Below, piece by piece: positions 4,694 through 18,287 of a stretch of 45,184 nt of DNA. Source of the DNA: a virus (lineage: Duplodnaviria > Caudoviricetes); IMG/VR virus record IMGVR_UViG_3300038336_000112, positions 1 to 45,184 of that record; one strand, 5' to 3'. Positions within the stretch are counted from its first letter, which is position 1. Every line of letters begins with the position of its first letter. A program made the position numbers and the translations under genes. Under the pieces are notes generated by a model, which saw only the letters and a program-made list of their open reading frames with translations, made no database searches and had not been told where the DNA came from.

Positions 4694-4837
4694 TCAGTAA
4701 TTTTGCTTTCAGCCAAATATCAACATATGTGATTATGGAGACTGGGCTGTTTGGTTGTAAATGAACAATCAATAGCGATATGTCGTTTCAATCCAATGGA
4801 TTTTTCCAAATGGCTCAACGTTTTTAACTTGTTCCTT

Positions 4838-5107
4838 AGTATAAATTTATTTCGACTATAAATCATCAATGACAACTTGCCCTTGATACAAGATTACCCT
4901 ATGCAAGTGTTTGTTTTGTAAACACTTATTTTTCTGGAATTTTACCAGTTTTTCATCATTTTTTGATATTTTAGACTACTCAATTTCGTCAATTTTTATC
5001 CCAGGTACGCACACTCGTATTTTCAACAATACCGTTGATTCTTATGCCATTTAGTTTTGGGGTTCGGGGGTTTTCTTTGCCTTGGTCACAGCCTTCCTGG
5101 AGCTGTA
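4838..5107. repeat. Copy 2 of 270-bp imperfect direct repeat
   Basis: Aligns with 1750-2019. Confidence 0.92.
5051..5107 (-). pseudogene. 3'-terminal remnant of a second serine recombinase gene
   Basis: Translates YSSRKAVTKAKKTPEPQN* versus YSSKKAVNRTKKTPEPQN* in the intact gene; similarity stops at 5107. Confidence 0.8.
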
Positions 5108-5181: not shown

Positions 5182-6012
5182 CTAAATATCACCTTTAGCG
5201 ATGTTAACTAAATCATGCCACGTCAAAGTTTCGAGATCCTCACTATTAAATGAGTAATAAGTAGCCAATATATTACTTACAATACGTTTTCTATCGTCAA
5301 AACCACCTGCCAAGTAATTTTCTCTAATCCTTTTATGTTCCTTCAATTTTAGTACCACTGCCTCATATGAATATACAGCTGAGAGATTTTCAATAATTTT
5401 CATATCAATTGATCCGATAAATTCATGGCTTATCTTTGTTAGAGTTGCTACATCTTTAAATGTTGGGGGACTTCCCCCTAAATAGTCAGCAAGAAGTTTA
5501 TGAATGTCTAGTCCAGCATATTTATCATGAATCAATTCTTCGTTACCTGTTAAGCATTCATAATGTTCCTTCTTTATTTCATTTTCTGAAAAAAAATGAA
5601 GCATGTTATTCCTGTAACAAATCAACAAATCAATGAAAGCTTTCTGGAGTCGGTCGGTTCGAAAGTATTCTGCAACACCCATTGCCTTTTTAAAAACTGA
5701 TTGTCCTGCACCATCGAATATTTCTTGGAATTTTACATTTTCTATGTATTTAGGTTTTCTGTTTAGCTCTGTGAAATATAGGTCAAGCCCATCAACAGCA
5801 AAAGCTAGATAAGATTTTAAGATAAATTGTCGGGACCTACTTATTGAATTTTCCAAATTCTCAGGGTTCCACGTGGTTGAAAAATCTTCAGGACATTTAA
5901 TGTTCTTATCCGTTAATCTCAAATTATAAAGAGCAATTAATGAAGTTATCAAAAAATGATTTGATTGTCCAAAATTCTTTTTAAATTTTTTACGTGCAGC
6001 TGTTGTCTTCAT
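5182..6012 (-). CDS. Putative HEPN-domain RNase
   Basis: R-x4-H motif RNNMLH (5613-5596) at the end of a hydrophobic helix, upstream acidic helix AVDGLDLYF, basic N-terminus; defence-island context. Confidence 0.65.
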   Translation of the reverse strand: MKTTAARKKFKKNFGQSNHFLITSLIALYNLRLTDKNIKCPEDFSTTWNPENLENSISRSRQFILKSYLAFAVDGLDLYFTELNRKPKYIENVKFQEIFDGAGQSVFKKAMGVAEYFRTDRLQKAFIDLLICYRNNMLHFFSENEIKKEHYECLTGNEELIHDKYAGLDIHKLLADYLGGSPPTFKDVATLTKISHEFIGSIDMKIIENLSAVYSYEAVVLKLKEHKRIRENYLAGGFDDRKRIVSNILATYYSFNSEDLETLTWHDLVNIAKGDI

Positions 6013-6018
6013 AAATAT

Positions 6019-6113
6019 TGCAACATATAGGACTCGAACCTACATCTCTCCCTTTTAAGGATGCACAAACACACCAGTGAAGGGGAACGGCTTTCCAGTT
6101 AGTCTAATGTTAC
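6019..6113 (-). ncRNA. tRNA-like RNA with 30-nt expanded anticodon loop
   Basis: GTAACAT-TA-GACT-AACTGGAA-AGCC-G-TTCCC-[30 nt]-GGGAG-AGAT-GTAGG-TTCGAGT-CCTAT-ATGTTGC-A: acceptor, D, anticodon and T stems; U8, A14, G18G19, A21, A15:U48 and TTCGA all present; no encoded CCA. Confidence 0.8.
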
Positions 6114-6119
6114 GGACTA

Positions 6120-6148
6120 AGTATAATCTACAATATTCCAGAAAACAA
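6120..6148 (-). promoter_or_regulatory. sigma70-type promoter for the tRNA-like RNA/HEPN transcript
   Basis: TTGTTT(6148-6143)-N17-TATACT(6125-6120); predicted +1 falls on G6113, the first nt of the cloverleaf. Confidence 0.65.
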
Positions 6149-6277: not shown

Positions 6278-6841
6278 TTATTCATATCTCCGTCTTTTAT
6301 CTTCTAATAACTTTTTTAAAAAGGGTTTGATTGATCCAAGAATAATAGCAGCTACTTTTTTTTCTTCTCTACTAGATAGCTCAGATTTTTTATTGAACAT
6401 CTTTAACATAAATTTATAGTCCAACTCTGGATTAAAATTATTATACTTGTTTCTCTTGAAGGCACCTTCTTCAAACAAATAATGAAGCATTTTTTTTGAG
6501 AAGAACTCGGCTGATAAGGTTAAGAATTGGTTATTTTCAATGGCGTGAAGTAACTTAAAAAGTTGTTCTTTAATTTTCACCTCTTCATCCAAGTCGTTTC
6601 TTTCAAACTTTTTTATACAAGAACTTCCAATGGGGAATAGAGTTTTTCCATTTAAATCATTACGAATTGTGAAGAGATAACGTAAATTTTCCTTCCCACA
6701 GATACACGATTCTATTAGTGTATCGTCCTCTGCAAAATCATGAATACTCCATTCTTCTACTGCAGATTTCCAATCTTTTGCTACTGATAATTCGATTACA
6801 GTTTCTATTAACCTATTATAATATGAACTACTTTCACTCAA
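6278..6841 (-). CDS. Hypothetical protein with putative Zn-binding CxC...C motif
   Basis: 187-aa ORF, TTG start with GGAGG SD; SCICGKENLRY...IGSSCI. Confidence 0.7.
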   Translation of the reverse strand: MSESSSYYNRLIETVIELSVAKDWKSAVEEWSIHDFAEDDTLIESCICGKENLRYLFTIRNDLNGKTLFPIGSSCIKKFERNDLDEEVKIKEQLFKLLHAIENNQFLTLSAEFFSKKMLHYLFEEGAFKRNKYNNFNPELDYKFMLKMFNKKSELSSREEKKVAAIILGSIKPFLKKLLEDKRRRYE

Positions 6842-7258: not shown

Positions 7259-8821
7259 ATGCAACGAATTGTGAAAGGAATCCGACTTTTTAACTATTGT
7301 CGTTTTATGGACTTCTCAACAGATTTTAATGATAGGCTAAATATATTGATTGGAGATAATGAATCGGGTAAAAGTAGTATTTTATCTGCAATTGATATTG
7401 TATTGAGTGGAAGTCGTAGTAAGGTTGAGGCACTTGGTTTAGATAAACTATTTAATACTGATATTATTAAGAATTATTTAAAGTCTGCAAAAAGGTACGA
7501 TGACCTGCCTGAACTTTTTATTGAAGTCTTTTTAAATGATTTCAATGAAAAGGAACTAGAAGGGAAAAGTCATCCTTCTGGCCAGTATTGTCATGGGTTA
7601 TATTTATTATGCCAACCTAGAGATGATCTAAGTAAAGAAATAAAAGACATTCTTGATAAAGGTGAGGATAACTTTCCTTTTGAATATTATTCAATAACCT
7701 TCAAAACATTTGCAGACCAAAGCTATACCGGGTATAGCCGGTTCCTCCGTCATCTACTAATTGATAATTCAAAAATTAGCAATGATTATGCAACAAAGAC
7801 CTATATTAGTACTGTGTACCAGGCTTTTGCTGACGGCGCTGAGAGAAACAAACATCTTTATGAGTATAGAAGCTATAAGGAGAAATATTCTAAAACTGAA
7901 CTTGCAAATATTAATAGTAGGATTCAAGATTACAAATTTGCTGTTAAGTCAAATTCCAAAAACAACCTTGAAACTGATCTGACTATTACTGAAGAGGGCA
8001 TTGATATTGAGAATAAAGGGATGGGGCGTCAATGTTTCATCAGAACAGAGTTTGCTTTGCAGAAAAATGGTAACGAATTAGACGTCATACTTTTAGAAGA
8101 GCCAGAAAACCACTTAAGTCATACAAATATGTACAGATTGATTCAAAAGATAAAAGATACCGACTCTCGTCAAGTTTTTCTTTCTACACATAGCAATCTT
8201 ATTAGTGCTAGATTAGATTTGAGAAAATCTATCTTCTTGAATAGCAGTTCTTGCGATCCTCTGCAGCTAAATAAATTAGAAGAGAATACTGCAAAATTTT
8301 TTATGAAGGCTTCAGATAACAATATTTTAGAATACATTATGTCTAATAAAGTATTATTAGTAGAAGGTGATGCTGAATATATATTAATGAGTCAATTTTA
8401 TTATAACTCAACATCAGAAGAGATTGAGAAAAGTGGTATTCATATAATATCTGTTAGGGGGACAAGTTTTAAACGATATTTGGATGTCGCAAAAATTTTA
8501 AAAATTAAAACAGCCATAATCCGTGATAATGATGGAAACTATAAAAACAATATCACTGAGTCATATAAGAATTATATATCAGACATAATCCAGGTTTTCT
8601 CTGATGAAAATGATGATATAAAGACTTTTGAAATTGCTGTATTTAATGAAAACCGAAATATCTGTAATGAGTTGTTTGCTCCTGGTCGAAAAACTTTGTC
8701 AGTCTTAGATTATATGTTATCAGAAAAAGCTCAATGTGCATTTGAATTGCTGGATAAGAAAGGAGAGGAACTTTCCGTCCCTAAATATATAATAAAGGCA
8801 ATAAATTGGATAAGAAAATAA
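7259..8821 (+). CDS. gajA: OLD-family ABC ATPase-TOPRIM nuclease (GajA-like)
   Basis: Walker A GDNESGKSS, Walker B/D-loop LLEEPENHL, H-loop STHS, TOPRIM LVEGDAE and RDND; overlaps a UvrD gene. Confidence 0.8.
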   Translation: MQRIVKGIRLFNYCRFMDFSTDFNDRLNILIGDNESGKSSILSAIDIVLSGSRSKVEALGLDKLFNTDIIKNYLKSAKRYDDLPELFIEVFLNDFNEKELEGKSHPSGQYCHGLYLLCQPRDDLSKEIKDILDKGEDNFPFEYYSITFKTFADQSYTGYSRFLRHLLIDNSKISNDYATKTYISTVYQAFADGAERNKHLYEYRSYKEKYSKTELANINSRIQDYKFAVKSNSKNNLETDLTITEEGIDIENKGMGRQCFIRTEFALQKNGNELDVILLEEPENHLSHTNMYRLIQKIKDTDSRQVFLSTHSNLISARLDLRKSIFLNSSSCDPLQLNKLEENTAKFFMKASDNNILEYIMSNKVLLVEGDAEYILMSQFYYNSTSEEIEKSGIHIISVRGTSFKRYLDVAKILKIKTAIIRDNDGNYKNNITESYKNYISDIIQVFSDENDDIKTFEIAVFNENRNICNELFAPGRKTLSVLDYMLSEKAQCAFELLDKKGEELSVPKYIIKAINWIRK

Positions 8822-9828
8822 TTTTTGCTGTTGCAGGTTCAGGGAAGACTACATATATTGTTGAATCAATAAATGAAGAAGATCGTTTCCTCGTTATAAC
8901 TTACACTGTAAATAATTTAAGAAATATTTCAGCTTCTATTAAGAGGAAATTTGGATACTTCCCGCAAAATATAGAAATCTATACATATTTTAAATTTCTT
9001 TATTCATTTTGTTTCGCACCATTTCTTGCATATGAGTTAGATGCAAGAGGCTTATTCCTAGATTTCCCACCACGGAATACATTAAAATTTAGACGAACAG
9101 ACCCTAGGTATTATCAAACAACTGACGGGAAATTGTTTAAGAATCGGTTGGCAAAACTTCTTGAGGTTAAGGATGTAATACCTGAAATCATTAAACGTTT
9201 AGAAAAATACTATGATTATCTTTACATTGATGAGGTGCAGGACTTTGGGGGTCATGATTTTAATTTCCTAGAATCAATTCTCCAAACATCAGTTGGAGTG
9301 TTAATGGTAGGTGACTTTTATCAACATACCTTTGATACCAGTAGAGATGCCAAAATTAATGAGGGGCTCCATGATGATTATATTTCATATATATCTAGGT
9401 TTCAAAAGATTGGGATACAGTTCGATACAACGACATTAAGTAATAGCTATAGATGTAGCCCTCAGATATGTAATTTTATTACTTCAAACCTTGGAATTAA
9501 AATAGAATCTCATCGGACAGATCAAACTCATGTGTATGAAATCTCGGATTATGACAATGCTAAAAAGATATTTAGTGACAATTCAATAATTAAGTTGTTC
9601 TATCAGAGAAGTGATAAGTACCTAGGCTTTACCAGAAATTGGGGAGATTGTAAAGGCGAAGATTGCTATGAAGATGTTTGCGTTCTATTAAATGCAACGA
9701 CATATTCACTTTATCAAAAAAGGGAATTATATAAATCAGCTCCTTTGACAAGAAATAAGCTCTATGTCGCATTTTCCCGAACTAGAAACAATCTCTATAT
9801 ACTTCCAGAAACCTTGATAAGCAAATAG
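8806..9828 (+). CDS. gajB: Compact UvrD/SF1 helicase-like protein (GajB-like)
   Basis: AVAGSGKTT, YIDEVQD, VGDFYQ, SYRC, LYVAFSRTR; TTG start overlapping the OLD gene stop. Confidence 0.78.
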   Translation: MDKKIIFAVAGSGKTTYIVESINEEDRFLVITYTVNNLRNISASIKRKFGYFPQNIEIYTYFKFLYSFCFAPFLAYELDARGLFLDFPPRNTLKFRRTDPRYYQTTDGKLFKNRLAKLLEVKDVIPEIIKRLEKYYDYLYIDEVQDFGGHDFNFLESILQTSVGVLMVGDFYQHTFDTSRDAKINEGLHDDYISYISRFQKIGIQFDTTTLSNSYRCSPQICNFITSNLGIKIESHRTDQTHVYEISDYDNAKKIFSDNSIIKLFYQRSDKYLGFTRNWGDCKGEDCYEDVCVLLNATTYSLYQKRELYKSAPLTRNKLYVAFSRTRNNLYILPETLISK

Positions 9829-9868
9829 TTTATTGTTTGGCGCCAGGAACAGGAAAGCATGAGCTTCA

Positions 9869-11356
9869 TTAATTATCATAATCAGACAAGAATAAAGGAA
9901 TAGCAACTTCAACGTTTTTATGGAGTTTCTTTTCTTCCACATGAACTGATAATGATAGATAGATCACGGCTTCTCTTATATATCGCAAGAGTCTAAAAGT
10001 CTTTTCTGAAAGTTCGAATTCTGTCACCGAAAAAGCTAGAGTATCATTGCATAAATCTCCTTCAGTTTCATCTAGTTTAAACCAATGTATTTTGCAATAC
10101 TTATGTTCAAGATTATTCCTTAAATCGTAAATTCTTTTTGCATCAGGATCTGCAACCTCAAGATACTCCATATCTTTTCCATCATTTGAAAACAAATCTT
10201 TACTTAAGAAATACAACCCTCTTAATGGATTATTGTTCAATCCCTCTATGTTAGGATCAATTTGATTATTTCTATACCAAACATTTTTAAAGTAAACTTT
10301 ATTCTTATCCTTCCCTAATCTTAAATATTCATTTAGGAAGTATCCAATTTTGTCAAACAAGGAGTATAGCATCTTAAATGAGTTTTTTAACTGCTCATAT
10401 CTAAATCCATACTGGGGATAATCAAATGTATCAACTAGGCATCTGCCTTTATCCGAGAAATGAATGCCTTCCCCAGATAATTCATGTTCATAGCAATAGA
10501 ATAAATACCTAGCAGTCAAATACTCTTGTTTTATTTGATTATAAAACCCTTGGAAAACAGGTGCTGAAAAATCTCGTACAAGCATACTCGGGAGTGAAGT
10601 AACATCATGAGCAATCGCTGTATCAAAGAATAAATCATTTAGAGGGTTAAGGAATAAACCGTTGTCAAGAACCCATTTTTTATAAGATTTTTCCTGATCA
10701 GTCTTCCCTAATGAGTACTTCTTAAACTCATTCCTTTTTGATAAAAAACTTTCCCCAAGTTTTTTCTTAATGGCTTCTACACCTGAATCGAATACTGTTT
10801 GTGCTTCTTTAGGAATATTGGGCTGACTTGAATAGGTTCGAAGTAATCTATACGCATGTCGCAAAACTAATGCTTCATGATTTGTATCATATAGATAACT
10901 AGCATAATAAATTAATCCATGGCCATAATTACATCCAGCCATCCCAAATGTTGGCTCAATCTCCAATGCATTTTTCCAACACTCGATAGCATAAATAATT
11001 CGTCCTGATACAGAAAACATGTTTCCGAGATTTGTATATGCCTGAAGAAAAATATTTTTTCTAATATGATCGGAAATATTGTTTGTTGAAACACATCTTC
11101 TAAATGATTTTATTGCATTGATATGTTCATTACGATTATAAGCCCATAAACCTTGCGATGTTGAGGAACGTATCTTATCCAAATCTGCCCAAGCATTACC
11201 GATATAATATTCAAGAACAGCAAGGTCATCCGGTGTATTGCAATTATCTCTAATTGATTCTGCACTACTTATGCAATCATAAAGTGCTTTTTCATTTTTC
11301 TCCTCGTAAGATTTATCTATTAGCTTACCAATTTGAATAATATCTCCATTTATCAA
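9869..11356 (-). CDS. TPR-containing HEPN protein (LA2681-like)
   Basis: TPR-like AYTNLGNMF...AIECWKNALEIEP; C-terminal FLNPLND, YSLFDKIGYFLNEY and RNNLEH (R-x4-H). Confidence 0.78.
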   Translation of the reverse strand: MINGDIIQIGKLIDKSYEEKNEKALYDCISSAESIRDNCNTPDDLAVLEYYIGNAWADLDKIRSSTSQGLWAYNRNEHINAIKSFRRCVSTNNISDHIRKNIFLQAYTNLGNMFSVSGRIIYAIECWKNALEIEPTFGMAGCNYGHGLIYYASYLYDTNHEALVLRHAYRLLRTYSSQPNIPKEAQTVFDSGVEAIKKKLGESFLSKRNEFKKYSLGKTDQEKSYKKWVLDNGLFLNPLNDLFFDTAIAHDVTSLPSMLVRDFSAPVFQGFYNQIKQEYLTARYLFYCYEHELSGEGIHFSDKGRCLVDTFDYPQYGFRYEQLKNSFKMLYSLFDKIGYFLNEYLRLGKDKNKVYFKNVWYRNNQIDPNIEGLNNNPLRGLYFLSKDLFSNDGKDMEYLEVADPDAKRIYDLRNNLEHKYCKIHWFKLDETEGDLCNDTLAFSVTEFELSEKTFRLLRYIREAVIYLSLSVHVEEKKLHKNVEVAIPLFLSDYDN

Positions 11357-11501
11357 TCGCGCACCCCTTGTTGTGAGTTAGCTTTGCATCAAAATCTATT
11401 CATCATAAATCTCCATACTGAAAAATAATACATATTTAAACTTCAGAAATGATGTATTGAACTCTTTCAAGTTAAGCCTCATCTTTCACTCTTCGCGCAT
11501 C

Positions 11502-14153
11502 TTATAACTCCCTAAATTGTCTTGCCAATTGTATAAATGAGGAATTAGGCAGGACTTGTTTGGAGGGAATAAACAGGTATTGCCATTCCTTGTAGTTATT
11601 GGCATTTCCCCACCGAGAAGCTACTTCACAATACTGGATTCCTCGTTTCTTCTTTGCTATAACATCAGGATCATTCAATCGATCCTCACCTTTCACCTCT
11701 ACAAGATATATAACATCTTTGGTCTCAACCACGAAGTCTGGTTCATAGATGTGACCATGATTATACGTGATGTTGAACTCTTGTGGCATCGGGCGTAGCC
11801 AATTTATAACATCGCTGTCAACCTCGAGGATTCTTCCGAGTACCAATTCAGGATGGCTATCAAACTTAGCAGTATCAAAAACACCTTTCTTTATTCCTTC
11901 AAAGAGAACGGATTGGATTTTCTCTGAATAACTTTCATCAAATAAATTGCTGCGTTCTTTATAGTTGTAGGTTTGTTGAAGATTGTAGTTCCGAGTTCCA
12001 ACAACCTCTTCCTGGAAAAAACCATTTTCACAGTAGAAGTGTTGCATCATTTGATCATATATTTTTTTTGCAATGTCTCGCTTGAACATCATGACGATAT
12101 TCTTCATTCCGTTCATTCCAAACTTATTCTCATAATGGCTACAAAGCTGGGATATTAGCTTAAAAAGCAGCGCGGCGCATTTCTCGTAATCAATTTCAGG
12201 TTTCTTTCTAAGCTCTTCAAGAATGACCTTCTGTGGGTTATAACCTTCAAAATCAATGGTATCACCTTTGATGCGTTGCCTGTCATGCATATCTTCAAGA
12301 TTTTGAATAATCATCTCATTCTTGATTGGTGCATGCGTAAACTCAGAAAGGTCTAGATTAAAGTCAATAAAAACATACTCTTCAACCCCAGCATCAGTAA
12401 TTTTTATCCTTGGTATGGGGATGAACTTCGACTGGGCAGCACGATGCGTTCTTTCCGTATGCTCTTGTAGCCATAGGTCAAAAGGCATCTCGTTTTCTTT
12501 GTAGATATCAGCCAGGTCTTTATCCTGTGATAGTTGATTCTTAACATTTTCAATGATCTGTTCTTTCTGGTCTAAGGTGATGTTATGTGTTGGTGTATCT
12601 TGGATGATTTTAACAACTTCTTCACTAACAAGTTCTTCCGCCTTACGGAACATAGCGTCAGCAGTCTCGGATTTTTCAATATTTGTTTGGCTGTATGCTG
12701 TCTCTAACATTTCGTCCGATTCATTTTCCAACGTCAACTGAGTAACTGAGATTTTTTCCGGTACGATTTCTTCAGCTTTAATGATGTTCCCAGCCTTGAA
12801 TATTGAATCTCCTTTCTGTGCCTCTCTCAGGAGCTCCTGGAATTTGTCGTGCGCGGTGAGCATGACTGCATCAACTTCCTTATCACCGGTACGCTCACCA
12901 TACGGTAAACGTAAACCACGCCCCACCATTTGCTCACGTAAAATCTTTGAAGCAGCGGTTCGTAATGGAACGATAGTATACAGATTGTTCACATCCCATC
13001 CTTCCTTGAGCATGTTCACATGTATGACAATCTCAACAGGATTATTAGGGTTCTCTACATCGAGCAGAAGCCGGGTATTTGTATCACTTTCCGACCCTTT
13101 CTGTTTGGAGTGGACAATTATGGTTTTATTGCTGTAAATACCATCATGGAATTCATCTGACTTCACAAACCTTTCAACCCAAGCTGCATGCTCTGTGTCT
13201 TTACAAACGATAAGCATGAATGGTTTGACTTCCGGTCTATTATGATTAGCTGCGTAGACTTTCAATTTGAGTCTTGCATTCTCGTGGCAGGCAATACCAT
13301 CGAGAAGCATCAACTTGTCGAGTTGTTCCTCACCAAAATTAAAAAAATCAATATCGGTACGAGTTACAGCAAATGGGGTGCGTGTATAGCCATCTTCGAT
13401 AGCCTTGGACAACGGATATTCATATACTATATTCTTGAACGGCACCTGTTTGCTTCCATTTGGAACGAGTGGAGTGGCAGTTAACTCAATACCAAAGAGT
13501 GGATGCAATTCATTAAGTGCCTGAGCTCCTTTCGCTGCCCGATAATGGTGTGATTCATCCATAATGAGCACCAAATCATCCAAATTGGAAAGGAATCGAT
13601 AGAACGAATCTCCTATGGTCTCGCTGACCTTCTTCATATTTGCATCCTCTTTATTGAATTTATCAATATTGAAAACAAAAATATGGATATCAGAATCAAA
13701 TAGCATCAGAGGTTTTTCCTTGTAATCCTCATCGGCAATTATCTGCGGTGGATTACTGAAGCAACCAAGTCCATTGAATACATATTTATGGTAACTAGGG
13801 TCGATCAAATCCTTTTTCAGTTTCTCATAGATCGTTGTATTCGGCGCAACGACAAAAAAGTTCTTAATATTGTGTTGCGTATATAAGTAGGCGATAAATG
13901 CTCCCATTAGCCGAGTCTTGCCAACGCCGGTAGCCAAAGCAAACGCTAGCGACACAAAGTCTCGTTCAAAATCTGTGCATATCGGATACAGGGCATGAAC
14001 AGCCCCGAGAGCTGCCTTCAAATTCATGCCTTTCCGCAATGTTAAGCTTGTGGTGATCTCCTCAAGTATCTTTAATGATTCTGTTTGTGGCCTACGAAGA
14101 GACATCACACCACTAATATAGTCGGTGGTATAGTGAGGATAACGGTTACTCAT
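11502..14153 (-). CDS. res: Type III restriction endonuclease/helicase subunit
   Basis: LATGVGKT, MDESHH, LTATP, LKEGWD, QMVGRGLR; C-terminal PDFVV...EVKG nuclease; ATG at 14153 overlaps mod stop. Confidence 0.88.
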   Translation of the reverse strand: MSNRYPHYTTDYISGVMSLRRPQTESLKILEEITTSLTLRKGMNLKAALGAVHALYPICTDFERDFVSLAFALATGVGKTRLMGAFIAYLYTQHNIKNFFVVAPNTTIYEKLKKDLIDPSYHKYVFNGLGCFSNPPQIIADEDYKEKPLMLFDSDIHIFVFNIDKFNKEDANMKKVSETIGDSFYRFLSNLDDLVLIMDESHHYRAAKGAQALNELHPLFGIELTATPLVPNGSKQVPFKNIVYEYPLSKAIEDGYTRTPFAVTRTDIDFFNFGEEQLDKLMLLDGIACHENARLKLKVYAANHNRPEVKPFMLIVCKDTEHAAWVERFVKSDEFHDGIYSNKTIIVHSKQKGSESDTNTRLLLDVENPNNPVEIVIHVNMLKEGWDVNNLYTIVPLRTAASKILREQMVGRGLRLPYGERTGDKEVDAVMLTAHDKFQELLREAQKGDSIFKAGNIIKAEEIVPEKISVTQLTLENESDEMLETAYSQTNIEKSETADAMFRKAEELVSEEVVKIIQDTPTHNITLDQKEQIIENVKNQLSQDKDLADIYKENEMPFDLWLQEHTERTHRAAQSKFIPIPRIKITDAGVEEYVFIDFNLDLSEFTHAPIKNEMIIQNLEDMHDRQRIKGDTIDFEGYNPQKVILEELRKKPEIDYEKCAALLFKLISQLCSHYENKFGMNGMKNIVMMFKRDIAKKIYDQMMQHFYCENGFFQEEVVGTRNYNLQQTYNYKERSNLFDESYSEKIQSVLFEGIKKGVFDTAKFDSHPELVLGRILEVDSDVINWLRPMPQEFNITYNHGHIYEPDFVVETKDVIYLVEVKGEDRLNDPDVIAKKKRGIQYCEVASRWGNANNYKEWQYLFIPSKQVLPNSSFIQLARQFREL

Positions 14154-15735
14154 TGCATTCCACCTCCATATCATCCTCATATACAGGAGGATGAATGATA
14201 TTCAGATTATAATCTGTTCTACCGAATTCACATCGGTCGAGGAGCATTTGCGGTATCTTCTTTAAAGAAATATGCTTATAAGCGCTTTCTAGCCCTGCAT
14301 CAAAGGATCGGCAAGCGATTATAAGATACTCATTTTCTTCCATAGTATCTTTAATGGAATCTAGATAAGTACTGTTCATGTGACGTGTGGTAACAAAGAG
14401 AAATGACTTCTCATTGCCCACGGATTGCTTCCAGAACAGGTCGTTATCCGGTTGATATTCAAAACCCTCGTGAAGAGCCACCGCCGCGGCCAACATTTCT
14501 GCGCTATACTCTGTATTTATCACAGGCTCCCCGAAAGAATCTGTGTTGATGAGGGTGGGTGCGAGCTCAAAAAATCGGTACCCTCCACCACCTTTCCAAG
14601 AGACAGACTTTGTGATCCCCCCCTTATCTTTTCCAGCAACAACTTTATCAAGTCGTACTTTACAGTGGGTATATGCATGTTCTCCCATCTCAATCCCAAT
14701 CCACCGCCTACCCATTTTGTGGGCGACTGCTGCTGTAGTTCCAGAGCCAAGAAAGGAGTCAAGCACAAGGTCATTTTGATTTGTTGCGATATGAATTATT
14801 CGTTGTAATAATCGTTCTGGTTTTGGGGTATCAAAAGCGTTTGCAGCACCAAAAAGAGCGATAACTTCTTTCTTTGCTTCTTGATTGTGTCCCACTTCTT
14901 TATTCGTCCACCAGGTCCAAGGGACTACTCCTTCACGTTCATATAAATACGTCTTCCTCCTAGGAATACCCCTTCCATCCTTACCGAACCACATTCTTCC
15001 ATCTCTTACTTGTTGCAGATACACTTCCTCAACATTTTTCCAACATCGTCCTTCTGGAGGAGTGTATTCAATACCTGCTGGTGTGACAATTTTGTACATT
15101 TGATTCGGTCGAAAACCTTGTGCGGTAAAATCTGAGGAAGTCCAAGGTCCACGGGGGTCCTCATCTGGATTTTTAAAATTTTTAATTTGACTATCATTGA
15201 GAGGAATTTTATTCCGTACATTTTTAAAAACTTCCCTATTTTTCGCATAGGACAAAACATATTCATGACCATCACTTATTACAGCACGCATATCTGGAGA
15301 TGTACGCTTCTGCCAGAGATTAGTAGCCAGGTAGTTATTCCGCCCAAAAACCTCATCACAAAGAACCTTTAAATATGCTTGTTCATCATCATCAATACTG
15401 ATCCAAATGCTTCCATCTGTAGCGAGTAATCTCCATAGAATCTGTAACCGTGGCCGCATAAGATTAAGCCATTGGCTATGTTCCAGATTATCATCATACT
15501 GCTCAAAAGCAGAACCTGTATTATAAGGTGGATCTATATAAATGCATTTGATCTTCCCCGCAAAATTGATTTCTAGCGCCTTGAGTGCCAACAGATTATC
15601 TCCATGGATCAGCATGTTTTCAGTATCAGATTCTGCAAAATTATTTGACATCGTTGCATTCTCAATTAAAATGCGCGGTTCAACGATTATGGGTTCCGCT
15701 TTCCCATACCAAGTCAGTTCCAATTTATTAGCCAT
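14146..15735 (-). CDS. mod: Type III R-M adenine methyltransferase subunit
   Basis: IHGDNL, YIDPPYNTG, TPKPERL, LDSFLGSGTT (beta-class motif order). Confidence 0.9.
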   Translation of the reverse strand: MANKLELTWYGKAEPIIVEPRILIENATMSNNFAESDTENMLIHGDNLLALKALEINFAGKIKCIYIDPPYNTGSAFEQYDDNLEHSQWLNLMRPRLQILWRLLATDGSIWISIDDDEQAYLKVLCDEVFGRNNYLATNLWQKRTSPDMRAVISDGHEYVLSYAKNREVFKNVRNKIPLNDSQIKNFKNPDEDPRGPWTSSDFTAQGFRPNQMYKIVTPAGIEYTPPEGRCWKNVEEVYLQQVRDGRMWFGKDGRGIPRRKTYLYEREGVVPWTWWTNKEVGHNQEAKKEVIALFGAANAFDTPKPERLLQRIIHIATNQNDLVLDSFLGSGTTAAVAHKMGRRWIGIEMGEHAYTHCKVRLDKVVAGKDKGGITKSVSWKGGGGYRFFELAPTLINTDSFGEPVINTEYSAEMLAAAVALHEGFEYQPDNDLFWKQSVGNEKSFLFVTTRHMNSTYLDSIKDTMEENEYLIIACRSFDAGLESAYKHISLKKIPQMLLDRCEFGRTDYNLNIIHPPVYEDDMEVECNE

Positions 15736-16500: not shown

Positions 16501-17901
16501 CTAGAAGGGAATATCATTATCAAATCTAACTTTTTCGTCGTCCTCAGGCAATCCAAGTACCTCTCTATACGTCTTAAGGAGCTTGTTCTGGAGATACACC
16601 GTTGGCTCTCCGCACTGTTCACAGAACCTTGAGTCGGGAAGATTCTCGTGGGATTGGCTATCATGCAAATTTCCGTAATCGTCCTCCCATTGAGCAGGTA
16701 TGCATCTGTTAACCAATGGCAATCCACAAATCCGACAATAGGTGGCATCAGCACTGAATTCTTCGTTCTGGCACCGTGGGCATTCCTTGACTTTATTTGT
16801 TTTCCGATCGTATTTGATCTCGGACTTGTATATCATCGAGAAGTCTCCTTCAGTATATTTTTCTAAGCTTTGTTTTATCTGTAAATGGTATTCGCTATCT
16901 TTGAATGCAGTAGGTTTCCCGCATGCATAGCAATGTTTCGCTTCAGGATGATTGAGATGCGACGGATCATGTGTACATGGATTTGTTAACGGAGTACCGC
17001 ATATCCTGCAGTATCCAGCGTCTTCTGAGAAAATCTCATTTCCACAGACAGGACATGGGGAAAATTGTGTGTGAAAATTCACACCAAGATCCCTGTAGCT
17101 GAATCCTGAATCATTAATCTTGAACGTAAATTGCTTTCTGCCACACTCGAAGCAATGGGAGGCCCCCGGTAGCCGTACCCATCCACAATGGGAGCAATAC
17201 CAGGTTGCAGCATGTTTAATGTGTTTCGTGGATTCCCAATCTATCTTTGAAGTACTGTACTTGTTGATATCTGCCTGCAGCAACCCAATCCTGGCTTTTG
17301 CGGCAGGAGACGAGATGTCGAATGCTTTCTCGATCAAGGATTCCGCACTGAAGCGAGCCTTTAAGTTCGAGGTAACCGGAGTCTGTTGGATAACTACCCA
17401 ACCTTCGCTTCCATCAGCAACTTTTGAGATGCCGTGACTATCCAAGAGCCGTTCGGTATGGTAGGCGGGACAAAGAAGGTTTCTGGCAAAGCAATTCGCT
17501 TCGTTCTCTAAGCGCTTATAAAGCTCTTGCCCCACTCCTCCCCTCTCAAGTATGGGTTTGCCATATTCTTCATGGTGGCCGAGAAAGATGTGTCCGATCT
17601 CGTGTGCAATGGTAAACCGAATACGTTGCTTCTTCTTTTTTTCATTATAGTAGACGATGTATTTGCCACATCTCTCATCCATAACAGCGGCACCATCCTC
17701 TGATCCAAAAAACTTGAAGCAGTTCTTTTGGGATATACCTGATTGCTCCATAAGTTTTCCATAAGAACAAAACTCAAACAAATTATGGAATTGATGTTGA
17801 ATAGCATGCAGACTCACCGGAAATCGGTCGATGCCGGAGTCCTCAAGTACGATCAAGGCTTCAATTATGGGTTGTTGGTAATCTGGATACAGTCGCATCA
17901 A
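16501..17901 (-). CDS. ImmA/IrrE-family Zn metallopeptidase with C-terminal zinc-ribbon repeats
   Basis: RFTIAHEIGH (HExxH), ENEANCFARNLL; many CxxC pairs in the C-terminal half; overlaps the repressor stop. Confidence 0.88.
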   Translation of the reverse strand: MMRLYPDYQQPIIEALIVLEDSGIDRFPVSLHAIQHQFHNLFEFCSYGKLMEQSGISQKNCFKFFGSEDGAAVMDERCGKYIVYYNEKKKKQRIRFTIAHEIGHIFLGHHEEYGKPILERGGVGQELYKRLENEANCFARNLLCPAYHTERLLDSHGISKVADGSEGWVVIQQTPVTSNLKARFSAESLIEKAFDISSPAAKARIGLLQADINKYSTSKIDWESTKHIKHAATWYCSHCGWVRLPGASHCFECGRKQFTFKINDSGFSYRDLGVNFHTQFSPCPVCGNEIFSEDAGYCRICGTPLTNPCTHDPSHLNHPEAKHCYACGKPTAFKDSEYHLQIKQSLEKYTEGDFSMIYKSEIKYDRKTNKVKECPRCQNEEFSADATYCRICGLPLVNRCIPAQWEDDYGNLHDSQSHENLPDSRFCEQCGEPTVYLQNKLLKTYREVLGLPEDDEKVRFDNDIPF

Positions 17902-18287
17902 AAGTCATCAGAAGCCTGGGGCTCGATGACTCCATCGCTATCAGCATCCTGGAAGGCTGTAGCAAAATTGTTTCGTAGGATTTCCATCATCCGCTCCCTA
18001 TCGTCTTCGGACATGGACTTCGACGCACGCGCAATAATCCTGATATCCTTGTCATCATCAATCGTCTTGTTCAAACTGAGAAGGTAATTGTAGTCAATGT
18101 GCAGCGCCTGCGCAATAGCTTTCAGGGTACTCGGATCAGCCACGATATCTGGATTGTTTTCGATTCGTGAGATGGTGGCATGATTGAGGTGTATAGCCCG
18201 GGCAAGTTCCCGTTGGGTCATATCAAGCTTTTCACGTTTTTCCTGAATGACTTTTCCCAATGTGAGTTCGCTTTCGCTCATATCCAT
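17898..18287 (-). CDS. XRE/Cro-C1 HTH repressor (ImmR/CI-like)
   Basis: MTQRELARAIHLNHATISRIEN HTH; coupled to ImmA-like gene; divergent from lytic genes. Confidence 0.9.
   Translation of the reverse strand: MDMSESELTLGKVIQEKREKLDMTQRELARAIHLNHATISRIENNPDIVADPSTLKAIAQALHIDYNYLLSLNKTIDDDKDIRIIARASKSMSEDDRERMMEILRNNFATAFQDADSDGVIEPQASDDF

Follow-up and report, generated by a model that had tools for sequence, protein, structure and literature searches.

Among described systems, AbiF/AbiFr (RCd22) comes closest to the module reported here. As far as the cited excerpts go, the likeness comprises a single HEPN dimer with an R-N-x3-H motif, a structured RNA encoded upstream, a shared transcript and a prophage or defence context (PMC12737573, PMC12373285). 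The module differs from AbiF in that none of 124 proteins of its family matches an Abi_2/AbiF profile in Pfam, NCBIfam or PADLOC, that Rfam finds no abiF RNA motif (RF03085) in the window and 20 related loci, and that it contains neither a repeated motif nor a terminator, its tRNA-derived RNA abutting the start codon instead. AbiF, from which Cas13 reportedly descends, together with its cis-encoded RNA is the closest working model, and these comparisons indicate that the module is not a member of AbiF.

Classical type III toxin–antitoxin systems (ToxIN, AbiQ, CptIN and TenpIN) likewise place an RNA upstream of an RNase gene, and neutralization by that RNA is what we infer for the module. In the excerpt cited, they combine tandem repeats with toxins of the ToxN type and have a terminator in between (PMC12373285), whereas the module has none of the three and holds a single RNA with a 6-nt spacer. 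Since repeats and terminator are absent, the term type III-like, used in a preliminary description made from the sequence of the locus, would suit the mode of action and does not suit the family. PrrC, RloC and HepS are HEPN RNases whose part in phage defence is to cleave the anticodon loops of tRNAs (PMC3710099, PMC13434031), tRNA-Lys being the target of PrrC and RloC (PMC3710099), and the cited sections have all three controlled by protein domains or phage proteins and not by RNA. The module protein differs in having neither an ATPase domain, such as the N-terminal ABC-type ATPase that is fused to HEPN in PrrC and RloC, nor a protein partner. The yjdF riboswitch is likewise a 5′ leader whose fold derives from a tRNA and retains the D/T elbow; it differs, in the section cited, in being tRNA-Lys-like, binding small molecules and controlling a gene that does not encode a nuclease (PMC9142559). 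Allo-tRNAs and irregular tRNAs are also non-canonical cloverleafs near toxin–antitoxin genes; in the cited excerpts their branches are 8/4 or 9/3 and the association is a loose one (PMC5389517, PMC7609411), whereas the module RNA is of the 7/5 type with an enlarged anticodon loop and keeps to a single gene family.

The relevant parts of a 2026 defence review (PMC13434031) and of the CoCoNuT paper (PMC11090510) mention nothing similar. A full-text literature search, which covered few subscription papers and leaves the AbiF-Cas13 supplements as a place where the family could be listed, returned no description of the module, in agreement with the preliminary description, whose author knew of no such architecture. 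The module is real, widespread and composed of two parts, and it is apparently undescribed; its RNA and its HEPN family are both unclassified, and their linkage is near absolute across many phyla. Because its probable logic is that of an RNA antitoxin, we regard it as a variant of RNA-controlled HEPN systems.

Layout and surroundings of the module

The window is the whole stretch of DNA analyzed, 45,184 nucleotides of the IMG/VR virus record IMGVR_UViG_3300038336_000112, and all module features lie on its minus strand. The promoter-like site (6148–6120) consists of a −35-like hexamer TTGTTT (6143..6148), a 17-nt spacer and a −10-like hexamer TATACT (6120..6125) located 6 nt upstream of G6113, the first base of the RNA. 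The hexamers of the promoter that had been proposed at this 5′ end are present at the stated spacing, and an enrichment of TANNNT across the family speaks for a start site there; the −35-like hexamer, however, matches the consensus at only 3 of 6 positions and is absent from the consensus promoter scan. The tRNA-derived RNA (6019..6113) is 95 nt long and matches Rfam RF00005 with 40.4 bits (E 3e-5) and a long insert in the anticodon loop. It comprises a 7-bp acceptor stem, a D arm, a 5-bp anticodon stem, a 30-nt loop, a 4-nt variable region and a T arm, and terminates in the discriminator A at 6019 with CCA not being encoded. The loop contains a 5′ motif CUUCA (6078..6082; C-U-U-N-A in the family, with columns invariant in a sequence alignment), an inserted hairpin of variable sequence (6060..6075) backed by folding z-scores and covariation, and a 3′ motif UAAAA (6053..6057), which family counts give as U-N-A-R-A. 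The spacer ATATTT (6013..6018), 6 nt without a Shine–Dalgarno (SD) sequence or terminator, leads to the stand-alone gene of a 276-aa HEPN-fold protein of an unnamed family and a predicted homodimer (5182..6012), in which codons 5596..5613 encode RNNMLH at residues 134–139. The cloverleaf, the discriminator, the spacer, the open reading frame and the RNNMLH motif had all been named beforehand and were found in the sequence; the very basic character that had been noted for the N-terminus (MKTTAARKKFKK) does not extend to the whole protein, whose pI is 7.8.

ARAGORN calls the window RNA tRNA-Val(cac), a label that arises because the anticodon is taken from the middle of the enlarged 30-nt loop. 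When folded alone, the RNA reaches a weak z of −1.7 against shuffled sequences, and the structure of lowest energy is rod-shaped instead of a cloverleaf. With a poor −35 hexamer, this z value and the rod, the window by itself is weak evidence, and hence the case depends on the relatives, whose covariation argues for the cloverleaf form of the window RNA. Three public read runs covered no more of the RNA than a single piece of 151 nt, which came from a run that is probably of DNA.

Across the family, 40 of 102 loci have TANNNT at a distance of 5–9 nt ahead of the RNA, compared to 5–16 loci in each of eleven control windows, so that transcription likely begins at the mature 5′ end of the RNA. 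The spacer between the RNA and the first in-frame start codon measures 0–49 nt with a median of about 10, and 24 of 106 loci contain an SD-like word in it, a count that is too low wherever an early GTG served as the start codon. The view that the RNA forms essentially the whole leader, without an SD, thus agrees with the median spacer, whereas the SD-like words prevent it from being a rule. A terminator between RNA and gene was not found in the window, and the family spacers are too short to hold one.

The window module is situated at the edge of a defence island (7259–15735) that contains Gabija GajA/GajB (7259–9828), a TPR and HEPN_LA2681 protein (9869–11356) and a type III restriction-modification system (11502–15735). 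An IrrE-like peptidase and HTH pair (16501–18287) and a prophage-like module (20021–44451) with DNA polymerase A, a VapE-like protein, SNF2 helicase, SAM synthetase, ParB-methylase, terminase, portal and capsid lie further along. Upstream of the module on the same strand, a 187-aa protein (6278–6841, minus strand) displays a CxC...C pattern and no family match; beside the module it recurs only in near-identical copies of the window element. The window also carries a 288-bp direct repeat (1733–2019 and 4821–5107, 88.5% identical), with one copy at the 3′ end of a serine recombinase gene and the other just downstream of the HEPN gene. It probably marks the edge of an element, because two related contigs cease to match the window there.

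Defence genes were also counted around the relatives. PADLOC matches at E<=1e-8 were obtained for 34 of 244 neighbour proteins and for 11 of 150 controls drawn from the same genomes (p=0.05), after leaving out 10 of 254 neighbours (nine near-duplicates and one HEPN-gene fragment) and 3 of 153 controls. At a threshold of at least 80 bits, the numbers were 22/244 and 4/150 (p=0.012). Counted by locus, 26 of 42 had defence neighbours in comparison to 5 of 20 control stretches (p=0.013), a contrast weakened by two control stretches that share contigs with modules. The neighbourhood is moderately enriched in defence genes, which speaks for the proposed anti-phage role to the same moderate degree. 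Taken as a whole, the earlier inference of a type III-like toxin–antitoxin or anti-phage module is partly supported.

Linkage and structure of the RNA across relatives

A homologue on a Sinorhizobium plasmid, 32% identical, is likewise preceded at its start codon by an RNA of this type, which ARAGORN missed. Loci were collected by the seed motif GQxNHFLI(T), 44 from genomes, 3 viral and 80 from metagenomes (the best 80 of 94), and a covariance model was made from 40 RNAs. This model matched directly upstream of the gene in 46 of the first 48 loci, which are largely its training data, and in 79 of 80 held-out loci, some of which are close to training sequences; the match of one held-out locus (L060) is weak with 36 bits. 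The RNA is also present at each of four additional loci that were retrieved independently of the seed motif (23–71 bits). Altogether, the RNA lies directly upstream of the gene in 129 of 132 loci, with L029 from an unpublished genome (G027) adding one row to the counts and carrying none of the conclusions. The co-occurrence of cloverleaf and gene across genomes, which had been named as a check, was hence observed, and the refuting condition set beforehand, homologues that lack such an RNA in front, did not apply. The three misses are L008 (4 nt upstream), one held-out locus (33 nt upstream) and L045 (a 30-residue match). Linked loci span Spirochaetes, Bacteroidota, Proteobacteria, Bacillota, Actinomycetota, Bdellovibrio and Chloroflexi. 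In three records titled as Spirochaetae, Firmicutes and Sphaerochaeta MAGs (L002, L003 and L004), the region is 99.9–100% identical, which reflects either recent cross-phylum transfer or a binning error.

In the reverse direction, no orphan RNA was present among the 94 candidates scored per genome in 42 host genomes: the long matches all adjoin the gene and the remainder are ordinary tRNAs of 78–88 nt. Searching viral contigs with the RNA pattern first yielded one match, the contig already known to carry the gene, and most of what a loose RNA pattern retrieved was due to chance or consisted of ordinary tRNAs (100 of 120 loci scored, best 42 bits). This test for RNA without gene is weaker than the forward linkage, yet consistent with it. 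Further copies were found neither in annotated phages nor, by DNA, in E. coli genomes or plasmids. Beyond the centre genomes, one family sample contained 2 members in 400 and a fourth class sample 1 in 300, and three class-level samples of about 400 genomes contained no new member; because the family is this rare, an unbiased co-occurrence count is out of reach. A third conserved gene was not detected, the largest neighbour cluster comprising 7 members of one clade. The RNA is retained upstream of six broken genes (L031, L039, L040, L043, L044 and L273), which may reflect only recent breakage or assembly error. Among 86 intact proteins, which form 33 clusters at 50% identity and share 21–99% pairwise identity, RNA similarity correlates with protein similarity (Mantel rho 0.38, null maximum 0.10), indicating that RNA and protein diverge together.

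From 113 parsed loci we obtained 107 distinct RNAs, or 106 after L060, whose loop was unparsed, had been dropped. In the held-out alignment, 93.5% of cells are paired and both partners have changed in 21 of 23 pairs, values that were far lower in shuffled and slid alignments, the alignment itself being fitted to the model. This covariation indicates that the RNA structure is under selection. The anticodon loop measures 23–43 nt in 107/107 parsed RNAs, compared to 7 nt in a translating tRNA, and begins with C-U-U-N-A, from which 2–3 bases lead to a hairpin whose sequence is free; a pyrimidine run and U-N-A-R-A follow. The hairpin has a z below −1 in 88 of 106 RNAs. While the parser favoured the 5′ motif, a plain alignment also shows it to be invariant. 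In the 3′ motif, the U, which the parser did not require, is present in 106/106 RNAs, the A in 105/106, the purine in 106/106 and the final A in 105/106. The two U-N-A motifs can pair as an element of two-fold symmetry, with pairing between the central bases in only 6 of 106 RNAs against about 20 expected, a shortfall inflated by relatedness, and lowest-energy folds form the motif pairs in about 25 of 106.

Outside the loop, the tRNA elbow is kept, as the D-loop GG is found in 99/106 RNAs and U54, U55, C56 and A58 in 103–105/106. U8 is present in 48/106, CCA is encoded in 7 of the 61 cleanly parsed RNAs, the discriminator among these 61 is A in 26, C in 15, U in 12 and G in 8, and pairs 2-71 and 3-70 vary. 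These counts indicate an RNA that keeps the D/T elbow while acceptor and discriminator drift. Among tRNA types, tRNA-Glu most resembles the family profile outside the loop (mean 22.1 bits over 13 tRNAs), with a D-arm score of 11.0 for tRNA-Glu against at most 5.9 for other tRNA types, in a comparison set that is biased toward model matches. In Priestia tRNA clusters, the overall score of one tRNA-Asp exceeded that of tRNA-Glu (31.5 vs 25.7), which was ahead on the D arm. The triplets of the 5′ motif are UUC in 62, UUU in 35, UUG in 6 and UUA in 3 of 106 RNAs. When read as a tRNA-Glu loop minus one U, the motif would correspond to the anticodons of Glu, Lys and Gln tRNAs followed by A37; these three tRNAs share U34-U35 and A37. 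Rfam returned no family other than tRNA for the window and 20 related loci, and the RNA class is in this sense a tRNA derivative recognized by no Rfam family except tRNA. Three distant members (L273:1886-1978, L278:1891-1995 and L272:1824-1929) keep the cloverleaf and the enlarged loop with one of the two motifs altered, the distant-member gene from Pseudoalteromonas being frameshifted; in two RNAs of this clade the loop ends in UGAUU and UCCAU.

The HEPN-fold protein family

A profile search with the 276-aa protein retrieved 535 clusters (50% identity, E<=0.001), whose members are mostly single-domain proteins of 250–340 aa. We aligned 124 sequences, picked by length and mostly among the 150 matches listed, in which N18, T23, W48, R134, N135 and H139 are invariant. 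The HEPN RNase motif is defined, in the section cited, as R-x4-6-H with a polar residue after the arginine (PMC3710099), and R134-N135-x3-H139 conforms to it in 124/124 aligned proteins. Pfam, NCBIfam, PADLOC and PHROGs offered no meaningful family (the first three being screened with 124 members), the sole match of the window protein in the family libraries being DUF3644 in PADLOC with E 0.006, and profile libraries gave no match to an ATPase domain among family members. The HEPN family of about 535 clusters is unclassified in that it has no profile in the libraries searched.

The structure model of the protein is all-helical with a pLDDT of 96.7. Foldseek against the PDB and viral models, as well as a PDB sequence search, gave nothing significant. 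An exhaustive structural search (VIA) retrieved 5yep as best match (Z 10.9, rmsd 3.3, 131 aligned) and also 1ylm and the HEPN toxin 7ae2 among the leading matches, with the tool's warning that helical bundles may also reach Z values in this range. HEPN proteins make up most of the 12 highest-ranked matches, some titled as such and others known to be. Since these top matches agree with the R-N-x3-H motif, we assign the protein to the HEPN fold on the basis of its model, as the preliminary description had anticipated when naming the fold as a check, Foldseek contributing a null result; a protein outside this fold, which had been named as grounds for refutation, is thus not what the model shows. 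A solved AbiF chain was not among the 50 VIA matches listed, and a likeness to AbiF may still exist. The predicted homodimer scored 0.54 versus 0.00 for the best control, with runs agreeing in at least 85% of contacts at a pLDDT of at least 85; the score mark is reached by 20 of 30 solved pairs and by 1 of 23 single chains, and the result may stem from resemblance to solved HEPN dimers. The predicted interface includes residues 138–140 and hence H139. Given the invariant R-N-x3-H and the HEPN structural matches, the enzyme looks active.

Possible functions of the module

The RNA keeps the shape of a tRNA, has dropped features needed for translation and has doubled the anticodon motif, and the most economical reading of this combination is a substrate-mimic antitoxin. 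With moderate confidence, we favour the RNA being a decoy substrate that would bind and restrain the predicted tRNA anticodon nuclease until phage infection removes or stops the RNA. A single transcript would begin at the first RNA base, and either tRNA-type 3′ processing or the nuclease would release the RNA from the message, while RNA that remains attached may also control translation. The HEPN dimer would grip the elbow and the doubled U-N-A, which would mimic U35-N36-A37 of tRNA-Glu, -Lys and -Gln. Upon loss of the RNA, the enzyme would cut host tRNAs with the U-N-A motif, leading to abortive infection.

A doubled motif on a tRNA shape is as expected of a ligand for a two-fold symmetric anticodon nuclease. 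The decoy reading also gains from the near-complete linkage, the lack of orphan RNAs among the scored candidates, the co-divergence of RNA and protein, the selected RNA structure, the invariant R-N-x3-H of the protein, the HEPN structural matches and the predicted homodimer. The tRNA-Glu-like body with its elbow kept and its acceptor and discriminator drifting, the triplets of the 5′ motif, and the defence neighbours (26/42 loci vs 5/20 control stretches), point in the same direction, and AbiF with its cis RNA, in the excerpts cited, provides a precedent (PMC12737573, PMC12373285). On the other hand, a terminator between RNA and gene is absent, so that an excess of RNA has no obvious route, and the RNA persists before several broken genes. 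Moreover, the defence enrichment is modest (p=0.05), a neutral transition from an ancestral C could account for the C/U bias at the variable loop base, the 3′ motif is altered in the distant clade, and the HEPN Z-scores are in a range that helical bundles can give. If the decoy reading is true, a tRNA gene became the built-in inhibitor of a tRNA-cutting enzyme, and RNA-controlled HEPN nucleases arose separately, beside AbiF; otherwise it is phages that are known to employ tRNAs against nucleases of this kind. Under the decoy reading, the RNA would predict the target of the enzyme, tRNAs with U35-N-A37, from a cassette of less than 1 kb.

The spacer of 0–49 nt, the SD-like word in only 24/106 loci and the absent terminator would also suit a tRNA-shaped leader that acts solely in cis, setting nuclease translation either by recruiting ribosomes without an SD or by blocking them until it is cut or bound. 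TRNA-shaped leaders increased translation 2- to 6.3-fold in vitro in the cited part of one study (PMC9142559), a gain that lends this explanation some weight. A plain translation element, however, needs neither two invariant U-N-A motifs nor an inserted hairpin, nor a tie to one nuclease family, and we consider it unlikely that cis control is all the RNA does. Such control and decoy action may coexist.

The conserved elbow could also allow tRNA-handling enzymes to engage the RNA, which, in a defence-enriched neighbourhood, raises the question whether it serves as a sensor or bait, on which a tRNA-cutting, -modifying or -repairing enzyme of the phage would act and thereby switch the nuclease on. 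The anticodon loop, which most such phage factors would read, is however precisely the rebuilt part, and we regard this explanation as quite improbable.

The layout of the insert between two motifs recalls Ire1 and bulge-helix-bulge splicing, and equivalent cuts in both U-N-A motifs would leave an exact 7-nt loop CU-UNA-RA. It is conceivable, though in our estimation very improbable, that the HEPN dimer acts as a splicing endonuclease on its own leader, cutting both motifs alike, and that a ligase, possibly a tRNA-repair ligase of the infecting phage, joins the halves to an opal or ochre suppressor tRNA (UCA/UUA) that poisons translation. Removal of the insert in silico raised the ARAGORN tRNA calls in the main clade from 20/106 natively to 89/106, with 49 UCA, 30 UUA, 6 UGA, 3 UAA and 1 other anticodon. 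Against splicing, neither the acceptor pairs nor the discriminator are constrained, 7/61 RNAs encode CCA and 48/106 have U8, the UGAUU and UCCAU loop ends of the distant clade would give no canonical loop, and no ligase gene is found among the neighbours. RtcB was detected in 5 of 42 host genomes (G001–G042, many incomplete) in comparison to 10 of 14 controls, with completeness and taxonomy uncontrolled, which also speaks against splicing; the low RtcB count among hosts is possibly an avoidance of the repair ligase. If splicing were true, the counter-defence of the phage would itself build the poison, and either the splicing or the sensing reading, if true, would be categorically new. A separate candidate, an in-frame stop in the nuclease gene that is read by the module's own suppressor, was rejected, as intact genes have no such stop and their terminal stops mismatch the anticodon.

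That the module lies where a prophage-like element ends, close to a serine recombinase and the 288-bp repeat, would fit a decayed tRNA or attachment site left by chance beside a stand-alone HEPN gene, yet the RNA is of full length with its own promoter signal and compensatory changes, and this practically negligible explanation is refuted by the covariation and the linkage in 129 of 132 loci at 21–99% protein identity.
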